From a virus (taxonomy: Duplodnaviria; Heunggongvirae; Uroviricota; Caudoviricetes), in IMG/VR virus record IMGVR_UViG_3300045988_150638: a stretch of DNA of 64,000 bases. The stretch is one strand, 5' to 3'. Under the pieces are notes generated by a model. The model was not told the DNA's origin and did no database searches. It saw nothing but the letters and a program-made list of their open reading frames with translations. Both the position numbers and the translations under genes were made by a program. Within the stretch, counting starts at the first letter, position 1; each line of letters begins with the position of its first letter. This document shows positions 25,163 through 26,161 of this stretch, one piece after another.

Positions 25163-26161
25163 TTATCCGTTACCGCGCGACGGTTTCTGCGTGACAAACG
25201 TCTCAAGCATCTTTTCCGCAATTGCCGACCAGGTGTGACACTGGACCTTTTCAGCATTTTTCACGCGATCAACGCGAGCAATAACCTCATCCCAATCAAT
25301 CCGCGACTTGATAACCATATGGTTCACCAACTCCAGGCGATCCGGCGGAAGGCAATCGGGCGGCGTTAATATCAACGCTCCACACATTGCCGCCTCAAGA
25401 ACAGTTAATCCAAGGCTTTCGGGATGCGTAACGATAAAAATGTCACTCTTACGCAATTCAGCTGCAAATTCGGTTGCTGGTACCGGAGTCCGTCTGTATG
25501 GGGTTACCGAAATATTCCCCGGCTCAATGGTAACCAATCCGTCATCGGTCAGCGTTTTGGCCTCATACGGAACGGTCAGACGCTGAAGGTTCATAAGGAT
25601 ACTTAAGGAGTGATCAAACCCACTAACATCAAATGCAGCGTGGTCTACAAAAATACGCAGAACATCGTCTGTCTTGGTTTCCAGATGGAACAGTTCCTGA
25701 TTCGCTGCCCATCCAACATGTTTGTTAAAGCGATTATGACGCTCTAACCTGCCGGGATTATCCAGGTACCGCCAGGTATCATCGCGGACAGTAAAAGTAA
25801 TATCGACTGGTGCCGAATCCAGCATAGAACCGTCATATACCTGGGCTACCCATCCAGAGAATCGGCGACACAGTTGCATGCCTATTTCCCTGGGTACCGT
25901 AGTAAAATACCTCAATCCTGGTGCCAAAATGGCCTTCGCAGAACATGCGGTCGCAGCAGTCAACACAGCTTCAACATAATCCTCCGGGCTTTCGACGCCA
26001 GGGGAATATGGACGATGGTATTGCAATGTTACCCCTGCCTCACTAAAGGCGCAGGCCAGGTTATAAGCCCACATTTCCGTATATGTTTTCACATCACTGA
26101 TGGCTTCAAATTTTCGCCCAATGATCAGGATGTTCATCGGCTTTTCCTCATTCCATTGCAT
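25163..26161 (-). CDS. GT-B fold glycosyltransferase (GT1/GT4-like), coupled to ban
   Basis: 332 aa; C-terminal ESLGLTVLEAAMCGALI resembles the GT4 nucleotide-sugar binding motif; ATGA overlap with the ban stop. Confidence 0.5.
   Translation of the reverse strand: MQWNEEKPMNILIIGRKFEAISDVKTYTEMWAYNLACAFSEAGVTLQYHRPYSPGVESPEDYVEAVLTAATACSAKAILAPGLRYFTTVPREIGMQLCRRFSGWVAQVYDGSMLDSAPVDITFTVRDDTWRYLDNPGRLERHNRFNKHVGWAANQELFHLETKTDDVLRIFVDHAAFDVSGFDHSLSILMNLQRLTVPYEAKTLTDDGLVTIEPGNISVTPYRRTPVPATEFAAELRKSDIFIVTHPESLGLTVLEAAMCGALILTPPDCLPPDRLELVNHMVIKSRIDWDEVIARVDRVKNAEKVQCHTWSAIAEKMLETFVTQKPSRGNG

Follow-up and report, generated by a model that had tools for sequence, protein, structure and literature searches.

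Dbn of P1-like phages belongs to a conserved four-gene module with a proposed role in glycan assembly

What does a glycosyltransferase encoded directly behind a replicative helicase gene modify? The question is raised by a 64,000-nucleotide stretch of viral DNA (IMG/VR record IMGVR_UViG_3300045988_150638; hereafter, the window), in which the gene that follows the helicase gene ban on the minus strand encodes a predicted glycosyltransferase. An earlier note, made from the sequence of the window alone, had described this open reading frame (ORF) as coding for a cytoplasmic enzyme without membrane partners, translationally coupled to the helicase gene, and had proposed that it could act on DNA or on a host target rather than on surface polysaccharide. 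The window derives from a P1-like phage or plasmid-prophage, the region spanning positions 25100-27600 matching P1, P7, RCS47, SJ46 and their relatives at 97.7-98.7% nucleotide identity, and the 332-residue ORF at 25163-26161 that the earlier note had singled out is real: it is a genuine gene, dbn ("downstream of ban"), of P1-like phages.

The annotation of dbn in the P1 record ("function unknown, possible glycosyltransferase") has been in place since 2004. The gene is named glt in P7, its product is designated "glycosyltransferase family 4 protein" in the RefSeq record of RCS47, and the same name is given at NCBI to a 97%-identical database cluster (P0001) with 2,431 member sequences. Both the gene and its tentative label are hence already known, and the protein is functionally uncharacterized; a literature search covering dbn, DUF115 in phages and glycosylated tail sheaths found no functional study. 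Recent horizontal acquisition of dbn was also considered and rejected, as its GC content (0.489) falls among those of its neighbors (0.47-0.52).

The results presented here indicate that dbn and three other genes, pmgO, pmgP and pmgQ, make up one conserved, putative glycan-assembly module, which is dispersed in P1 and lies inside structural-gene operons in other phages. A four-gene module of this kind in phage structural regions appears to be new, and was not found in the searchable literature. P1 is a paradigm phage and a standard transducing tool for E. coli, and these four genes have remained without an assigned role ever since its genome was published in 2004; their recognition as one conserved module turns four orphan genes into a single testable pathway, for which deletion mutants already exist.

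Dbn and its conserved partners

Dbn is a soluble, cytoplasmic, GT4-like glycosyltransferase of GT-B fold, probably retaining, as judged from its structural model and motifs. This agrees with what the earlier note had claimed on fold and location, and is borne out by the GT-B model, the E-x7-E motif and the lack of any segment of transmembrane-grade hydropathy. An AlphaFold model built with 17 homologs (predicted local distance difference test, 87.4; predicted template modeling score, 0.84) contains two Rossmann-like domains with an inter-domain cleft, and the motif, E248-SLGLTVL-E256, maps to the donor domain. Both glutamates are invariant in the 17-sequence alignment. Across 50 family members, reaching down to 25% identity, H246 and E256 are invariant, E248 is present in at least 90% and G261 is conserved. 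The Pfam profile Glycos_transf_1 (PF00534) matches residues 229-315 only, with 23.8 bits, below its gathering cutoff of 26.4, and is listed among the precomputed database hits for P0001; Dbn is a divergent relative of GT4 and not a typical member. Residues 1-216 have no sequence match in Pfam, NCBIfam or the Protein Data Bank (PDB), with no recognizable Glyco_transf_4-type acceptor domain, and the putative acceptor domain is, on sequence grounds, family-specific. It is also acidic (isoelectric point, pI, 5.8; net charge -3), as is the whole protein (pI 5.4).

PHROGs assigns Dbn to phrog_2518, annotated as function unknown, and scans with NCBIfam and PADLOC returned, respectively, one insignificant match and none. 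Searching the PDB sequences with a Dbn profile retrieved only KtrA Rossmann-domain proteins (E 5e-5 to 0.3) and one weak glycosyltransferase (E 1.8), all of which were treated as uninformative. A full profile scan of 1.84 billion protein representatives identified 360 Dbn relatives, and a profile search of 185,579 species-representative genomes only 3 Dbn-like loci: the family is small, restricted to phages and metagenomes, and nearly absent from bacterial reference genomes. Some of its members are fusions of about 520-550 residues (P0088, P0095, P0103, P0113, P0143 and P0147). P0103 carries a C-terminal S-adenosylmethionine (SAM)-dependent methyltransferase domain (Methyltransf_11) and others have 200-residue extensions without a Pfam match; these fusions could hint at tailoring of a glycan.

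The partners of Dbn emerged from loci outside the P1-like group. Alignments of the closer family searched against viral contigs gave only P1-like loci, and a set of 45 unique non-P1 loci, drawn from viral and metagenomic contigs, came only with a distant-clade alignment. On three non-P1 phage backbones (L005, L006 and L007), small genes that carry no Pfam label border a Dbn homolog (47-57% identity), and tblastn identified the homologs of these flanking genes in the window as pmgO, pmgP and pmgQ (names taken from the P1 record), all three annotated in P1 with a "putative morphogenetic function". For pmgQ, identity to the Dbn-adjacent genes reaches 48-53% in L005 and L006, and 33% in L007. A PmgQ relative is the commonest gene immediately downstream of Dbn homologs, occupying the directly adjacent position in 13 of the 34 non-P1 loci whose downstream sequence is long enough; upstream, at a distance of at most three genes, a PmgO/P-like gene occurs in 12 of 27, and at least one PmgO/P/Q-like partner is present in 28 of 45. 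In other phages the module genes are contiguous, and the stop codon of one often overlaps the start codon of the next. The earlier note's picture of an enzyme without partners is misleading: it stands for membrane or Gtr-type genes, none of which is annotated in a complete P1-like genome, and falls for the three glycosyltransferase-like genes that lie 6-8.5 kb from dbn in the same window.

The family profile of PmgQ matches Skp1 alpha-galactosyltransferase (E=8e-7), glycogenin (E=7e-5), a GT8-family enzyme (5gvv; E=2e-4) and LgtC (E=0.03). It has a conserved D-x-D along with a GDQ motif, and PHROGs places the protein in phrog_1962, "glycosyltransferase". PmgO maps to phrog_4603, "alpha-2,3-sialyltransferase" (E=4e-73). 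The PmgO/P family resembles Cst-II and Maf both by profile and by structure, and its profile covers the two sialyltransferase stretches, the N-terminal GPS(L) and (S)G...G-x-D; Pfam PF01973, which groups Maf (PDB 5mu5) with the archaeal MptE pyrophosphokinase (PDB 8sd5), scores sub-threshold (about 21-23 bits vs 34.6). With about 200 residues each, PmgO and PmgP are minimal in comparison with Maf, whose flanking domains they lack. None of the four proteins contains a segment of transmembrane hydropathy. The gene between pmgP and pmgQ in P1, ppp, has no relative in non-P1 Dbn loci according to jackhmmer, and would by this comparison be a P1-lineage insertion that does not form part of the module elsewhere.

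Structural genes surround the module in several phages. In one contig (L177) it is inserted precisely at the boundary of the tail sheath (phrog_165, E=3e-160) and tail tube (phrog_185) genes, with the protease and major head genes lying upstream, and three other contigs (L176, L178 and L180) present the same gene-size pattern. In L092 it belongs to an island of glycosyltransferase and methyltransferase genes that begins just downstream of the major capsid gene, and in L006 it lies directly upstream of terminase. In P1 itself, dbn and pmgO-pmgP-(ppp)-pmgQ flank the convergent/divergent baseplate/tail operon 26-25-7-24-6-5; the late promoter LPpmgL heads the pmgL-pmgQ cluster, and pmgN-pmgO-pmgP-ppp-pmgQ, downstream of this promoter, is furnished with a C1 operator, Oppp. 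Larger variants of the module also include FkbM-type methyltransferases, a polysaccharide pyruvyl transferase and a nucleotidyltransferase/cupin protein, the first two being glycan-tailoring enzymes, and the clusters of more distant relatives also hold sulfotransferase, GT-D, GT8 and radical-SAM genes.

Virion proteins and host envelope glycans as candidate acceptors

Taken as the GT4-type enzyme of a phage module, Dbn would help to build a glycan for which we tentatively favor a virion or other protein acceptor, because the module sits in structural operons, because the matches of its partners act on protein glycans and because mycobacteriophages offer a precedent. The best-scoring relatives of the partner proteins, Skp1 galactosyltransferase, glycogenin and the Maf glycosyltransferase, whose target is flagellin, act on protein-linked glycans, and the acidic character of the Dbn acceptor domain was counted in the same direction. 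The capsid and tail tube of mycobacteriophages are modified by tandem glycosyltransferases together with an O-methyltransferase (PMC11600133, citing Freeman 2023). Like these cassettes, the Dbn module is a soluble, multi-enzyme phage glycosyltransferase set located in or beside structural modules, dispensable for plaques and accompanied, in its wider relatives, by tailoring methyltransferases. Unlike them, it combines Dbn-type GT4, GT8-like and Maf/GT42-like families, and is split in P1 over two C1-controlled operons.

On this protein-acceptor reading, Dbn, PmgQ, PmgO and PmgP would draw on host nucleotide sugars in the cytoplasm, because no gene for nucleotide-sugar synthesis accompanies the four genes in P1, and would cooperate stepwise to assemble a short oligosaccharide on a common, non-DNA acceptor; activity, donor sugars, cooperation and acceptor are all elements that we infer. 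The contribution of PmgO and PmgP may be an acidic sugar that is activated with CMP and taken from the host pool, for example Kdo (3-deoxy-D-manno-oct-2-ulosonic acid). The most likely acceptor would be a phage structural protein of the tail or head, as in the virion glycosylation of mycobacteriophages, and the glycan would constitute an accessory coat without which plaques still form under laboratory conditions. According to the literature, dbn, pmgO, pmgP and pmgQ are indeed all dispensable: CRISPR interference (CRISPRi) yields an efficiency of plating of about 1 for each of them, and no plaquing defect is reported for their in-frame deletions in P1. The broader proposition that P1 and scattered Proteobacteria-infecting phages coat their own virions, likely on tail proteins, by means of an unrecognized cytoplasmic four-enzyme module (Dbn, PmgQ and two Maf/sialyltransferase-like proteins) is possible, and we put it forward with more doubt.

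Several observations weigh against a virion acceptor. We know of no report of a glycosylated P1 virion protein, and a liquid chromatography-tandem mass spectrometry (LC-MS/MS) study of the P1 virion, in which modifications were not looked for, makes no mention of glycosylation. The synteny counts given above come from metagenomic contigs of short length, on which ORFs were called in a simple way and labeled with jackhmmer, and some of the loci are near-duplicates. Both P1 operons carry C1 operators, which mark early genes. Lastly, Serratia and Buttiauxella chromosomes harbor Dbn homologs with 39-40% identity and all three partners within about 10 kb, with PmgQ- and PmgP-like genes located between phage holin and lysozyme genes, together with a DUF2514 protein (L003 5191-7581; L004 3016-5894; L089), and Dbn-like and PmgO-like genes nearby, adjoining a chaperone-usher fimbrial operon. 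No structural phage gene lies within about 20 kb of this module, an arrangement that fits a host target better, and the locus may represent a domesticated module.

That the module persists in chromosomes with no virion genes close by is one of the points that speak for the main rival explanation, in which the same four enzymes modify an envelope glycan of the host on the cytoplasmic side of the inner membrane. Their likeliest target would be the lipopolysaccharide (LPS) core, which is the receptor of P1: newly exported LPS would be altered after derepression, resulting in less superinfection or in a smaller loss of progeny to debris and outer-membrane vesicles. The mix of enzyme families in the module is, moreover, similar to that of lipooligosaccharide (LOS) pathways. 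Outer-core enzymes of LPS and LOS bring together the same three fold families in one pathway (WaaG and WaaB for GT4; LgtC and WaaJ-type enzymes for GT8; Cst-I and Cst-II for GT42), are cytoplasmic or peripheral, have no transmembrane segment and no dedicated flippase, and include structural or profile neighbors of the proteins studied here. The earlier note had read the absence of a flippase as pointing away from surface polysaccharide. That argument does not hold, because the GT4 and GT8 enzymes that build the LPS core operate on the cytoplasmic side with no flippase of their own and because Dbn does have three glycosyltransferase-like partners.

Other evidence is less favorable to an LPS target. 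The earlier note had also raised the prospect of clear orthology to an LPS or capsule glycosyltransferase; Dbn was found not to be orthologous to any waa or O-antigen enzyme, and it is not placed in a waa or O-antigen cluster. Its family is small and phage- and metagenome-restricted, with the 360 members and three reference loci described above, and its acceptor domain is acidic, whereas we would expect that of membrane-associated GT-B enzymes to be usually basic. The embedding of the module in the late tail operons of several phages would leave little time for surface remodeling, and we are aware of no report of LPS conversion by P1. Serotype conversion of the Gtr type (GtrA, GtrB and a type-specific Gtr) is likewise a glycosylation function of temperate phages that is non-essential for growth, but Gtr proteins are integral to the membrane and work in the periplasm with undecaprenyl-phosphate-glucose, unlike Dbn, PmgO, PmgP and PmgQ, and no Gtr-like product is annotated in the complete P1-like genome. 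On balance we regard modification of the LPS core or of another envelope glycan as a possibility, a somewhat doubtful one.

In a further alternative, what the module makes or modifies would be a soluble small molecule or else a cytoplasmic protein of the host, with PmgO and PmgP acting as MptE-like pyrophosphokinases in place of glycosyltransferases, for instance to produce a glycosylated metabolite or signal for host takeover or counter-defense. The match of the PmgO/P family profile to both sialyltransferase stretches argues against such a role, and the GT8 and GT4 partners, along with the FkbM and pyruvyl-transferase neighbors, suggest an oligosaccharide over a single metabolite. The PADLOC scan, which has no match for Dbn, also counts against this alternative, which we consider improbable. 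If the virion is the target, P1 would become the first classical enterobacterial model phage with a virion glycosylation system, and glycan coats on Gram-negative phages would bear on immune recognition in phage therapy and on adsorption behavior; if the LPS core is the target, it would amount to a new receptor-masking strategy.

The helicase junction and the proposed DNA acceptor

The proposal that Dbn acts on DNA had been tied to its position behind ban. As the earlier note had claimed, the two genes are co-transcribed: according to the P1 record, the ban operon, under repression by C1 via the operator Oban, has dbn as its final gene, and a bidirectional terminator closes the operon. For the 70-nt stretch that contains the terminator hairpin, and a second small hairpin, the folding energy is -22.6 kcal/mol on one strand and -23.8 kcal/mol on the other. 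A predicted promoter inside ban could allow ban-independent transcription of dbn. The junction itself is not the ATGA overlap described in the earlier note: the coding strand reads ...GAGGATTATTAATGCAATGG..., in which the ban stop codon and the annotated dbn start codon share a single base (TAATG). Among 81 P1-like loci, this junction is TAATG in 72 and TGATG in 2, and in the remaining 7 an extra ORF of 101 codons is inserted between ban and dbn, with dbn starting at Met9 and overlapping the inserted ORF through ATGA. The inserted ORF occurs in seven P1-like viral contigs (L079, at 7699-8004, L080-L084 and L086).

Every homolog outside the P1-like group starts at the equivalent of Met9, with the sequence MK/NILIIG (MNILIIG in dbn), and a GAGGA-type Shine-Dalgarno precedes both the annotated ATG and the Met9 ATG (26137). 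The true start of dbn may hence lie at 26137, in which case 21 nt would separate it from the ban stop codon; such a start is plausible because non-P1 homologs begin at this position and because it has a GAGGA Shine-Dalgarno of its own. The eight N-terminal codons and the ban junction are not conserved features of dbn. Close packing and co-transcription of dbn with ban are real in the window, but in a dedicated scan none of the 45 non-P1 loci had a Ban-like helicase gene beside the Dbn homolog; in one distant contig, a DnaB_C gene lies about 4.5 kb upstream of a Dbn relative, with other glycosyltransferase genes in between. The ban-dbn adjacency is specific to the P1 lineage and carries no functional signal, since an ORF interrupts it in 7 of 81 P1-like loci and none of the 45 non-P1 loci has it. 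It would be an accident of P1 genome arrangement.

The remaining evidence on DNA as the acceptor concerns the enzyme and its surroundings. In this scenario, Dbn would glycosylate phage DNA in the manner of the T4 alpha- and beta-glucosyltransferases, linked to replication through the Ban helicase. The fold-level comparison that the earlier note had called for was run: the Dbn model resembles generic GT4 enzymes, and the comparison does not identify the acceptor, because the T4 DNA alpha-glucosyltransferase (AGT) and LPS-core enzymes score about equally. AGT ranks only 19th, with small-molecule, lipid and LPS enzymes scoring equal or better. Unlike what would be expected of a relative of AGT (PDB 1y6f) or of the DNA glycosyltransferase of phage HY126 (PDB 9iqz), Dbn has no sequence-level relationship to either, and its profile matches no DNA glycosyltransferase at the sequence level; unlike DNA glycosyltransferases, it travels with GT8-like and Maf-like partners and not with base-modifying enzymes. 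Known DNA glycosylation requires 5-hydroxymethyl- or 5-hydroxy-pyrimidines generated by thymidylate-synthase homologs or TET enzymes (PMC13326640). Judging by annotation names, a complete P1-like genome with 98 annotated features contains neither a thymidylate-synthase homolog nor a TET/JBP product.

The restriction-sensitivity assay suggested in the earlier note has an answer in the literature. In-frame deletions of dbn, pmgO, pmgP and pmgQ are among the knockouts reported to have unchanged anti-restriction on EcoK, EcoA and EcoB hosts, tests which cover type I systems only and were made with the Dar proteins present. The acidic acceptor domain was counted against DNA, and the clustering of Dbn relatives with methyl-, pyruvyl- and sulfo-transferases points to a complex glycan. 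Given the lack of similarity to DNA glycosyltransferases, the absence of an annotated hydroxylated-base pathway, the lack of a restriction phenotype, the acidic acceptor domain and the complex-glycan partners, it is very unlikely that Dbn modifies DNA, and a replication-coupled version of this activity is no more credible. For the earlier note the result is deflationary, neither DNA glycosylation nor a functional tie to the helicase finding support.

Feature coordinates and further observations in the window

The features discussed above are collected in Table 1. The three tRNA genes listed there lie upstream of dbn and share the C1-controlled transcription unit with ban and dbn.

Table 1. Coordinates of dbn, its partner genes and associated features in the window
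Feature	Position	Strand	Description and basis
dbn (P7 glt)	25163..26161	minus	332 aa; probable soluble GT-B, GT4-like glycosyltransferase; likely core start Met9 at 26137
E-x7-E codons, E248-x7-E256 (THPESLGLTVLEAA)	25394..25420	minus	signature of retaining GT4-type enzymes; in C-terminal (donor) domain
ban	26161..27531	minus	DnaB-type replicative helicase, directly upstream of dbn; Pfam DnaB_C E=1e-107, DnaB N-terminal domain E=2e-34; P1 annotation
ban/dbn junction, TAATG	26159..26163	minus	ban stop TAA and annotated dbn ATG share one base; sequence
Sigma-70-like promoter inside ban	26771..26798	minus	consensus scan; coordinates map onto predicted P2dbn of AF234172; prediction only
Bidirectional terminator hairpin, GAAAAGCCCGG-CGTTC-GGGCTTTTC	25116..25142	both	between convergent genes 5 and dbn; end of ban-dbn operon; sequence
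tRNA gene (CAT anticodon)	27812-27887	minus	annotated tRNA-Ile2 in P1
tRNA genes (Thr-TGT; Asn-GTT)	29318-29393, 29396-29471	minus	
pmgO	18566..19228	minus	MptE/Maf/GT42-like, GSGPSL motif; tblastn from genes flanking Dbn homologs, 39-46% identity, E 2e-10 to 2e-55
pmgP	18042..18668	minus	second MptE/Maf/GT42-like protein; tblastn E 1e-54 to 4e-80
ppp	17368..18060	minus	lambda-type Ser/Thr phosphatase between pmgP and pmgQ; Pfam Metallophos E=3e-15
pmgQ	16670..17371	minus	GT8-like GT-A glycosyltransferase, D79-x-D81 and GDQ motif; tblastn E 1e-27 to 3e-74

Three other genes of the window, all on the minus strand, depart from their counterparts or annotations. The TerB-like gene tciA (28162-28586) appears to be split into two overlapping ORFs of 69 codons (28377..28586) and 92 codons (28162..28440), with a single intact ORF of 144 codons in contig L079, which suggests a frameshift or a pseudogene in the window. 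The 672-residue product of dmt (30145-32163) comprises an N-terminal C5-cytosine-methyltransferase-like part and a C-terminal Dam-like part; the gene matches that of MH422554 (2019 nt) and is shorter than the dmt of P1 in AF234172 (2265 nt). Lastly, the product of pap (14527-15033), annotated as an "acid phosphatase", gives a match (HAD_PNKP E=1e-11) to the HAD-type phosphatase domain found in polynucleotide kinase/phosphatase, which suggests that it may be a nucleic-acid 3'-phosphatase rather than a generic acid phosphatase.

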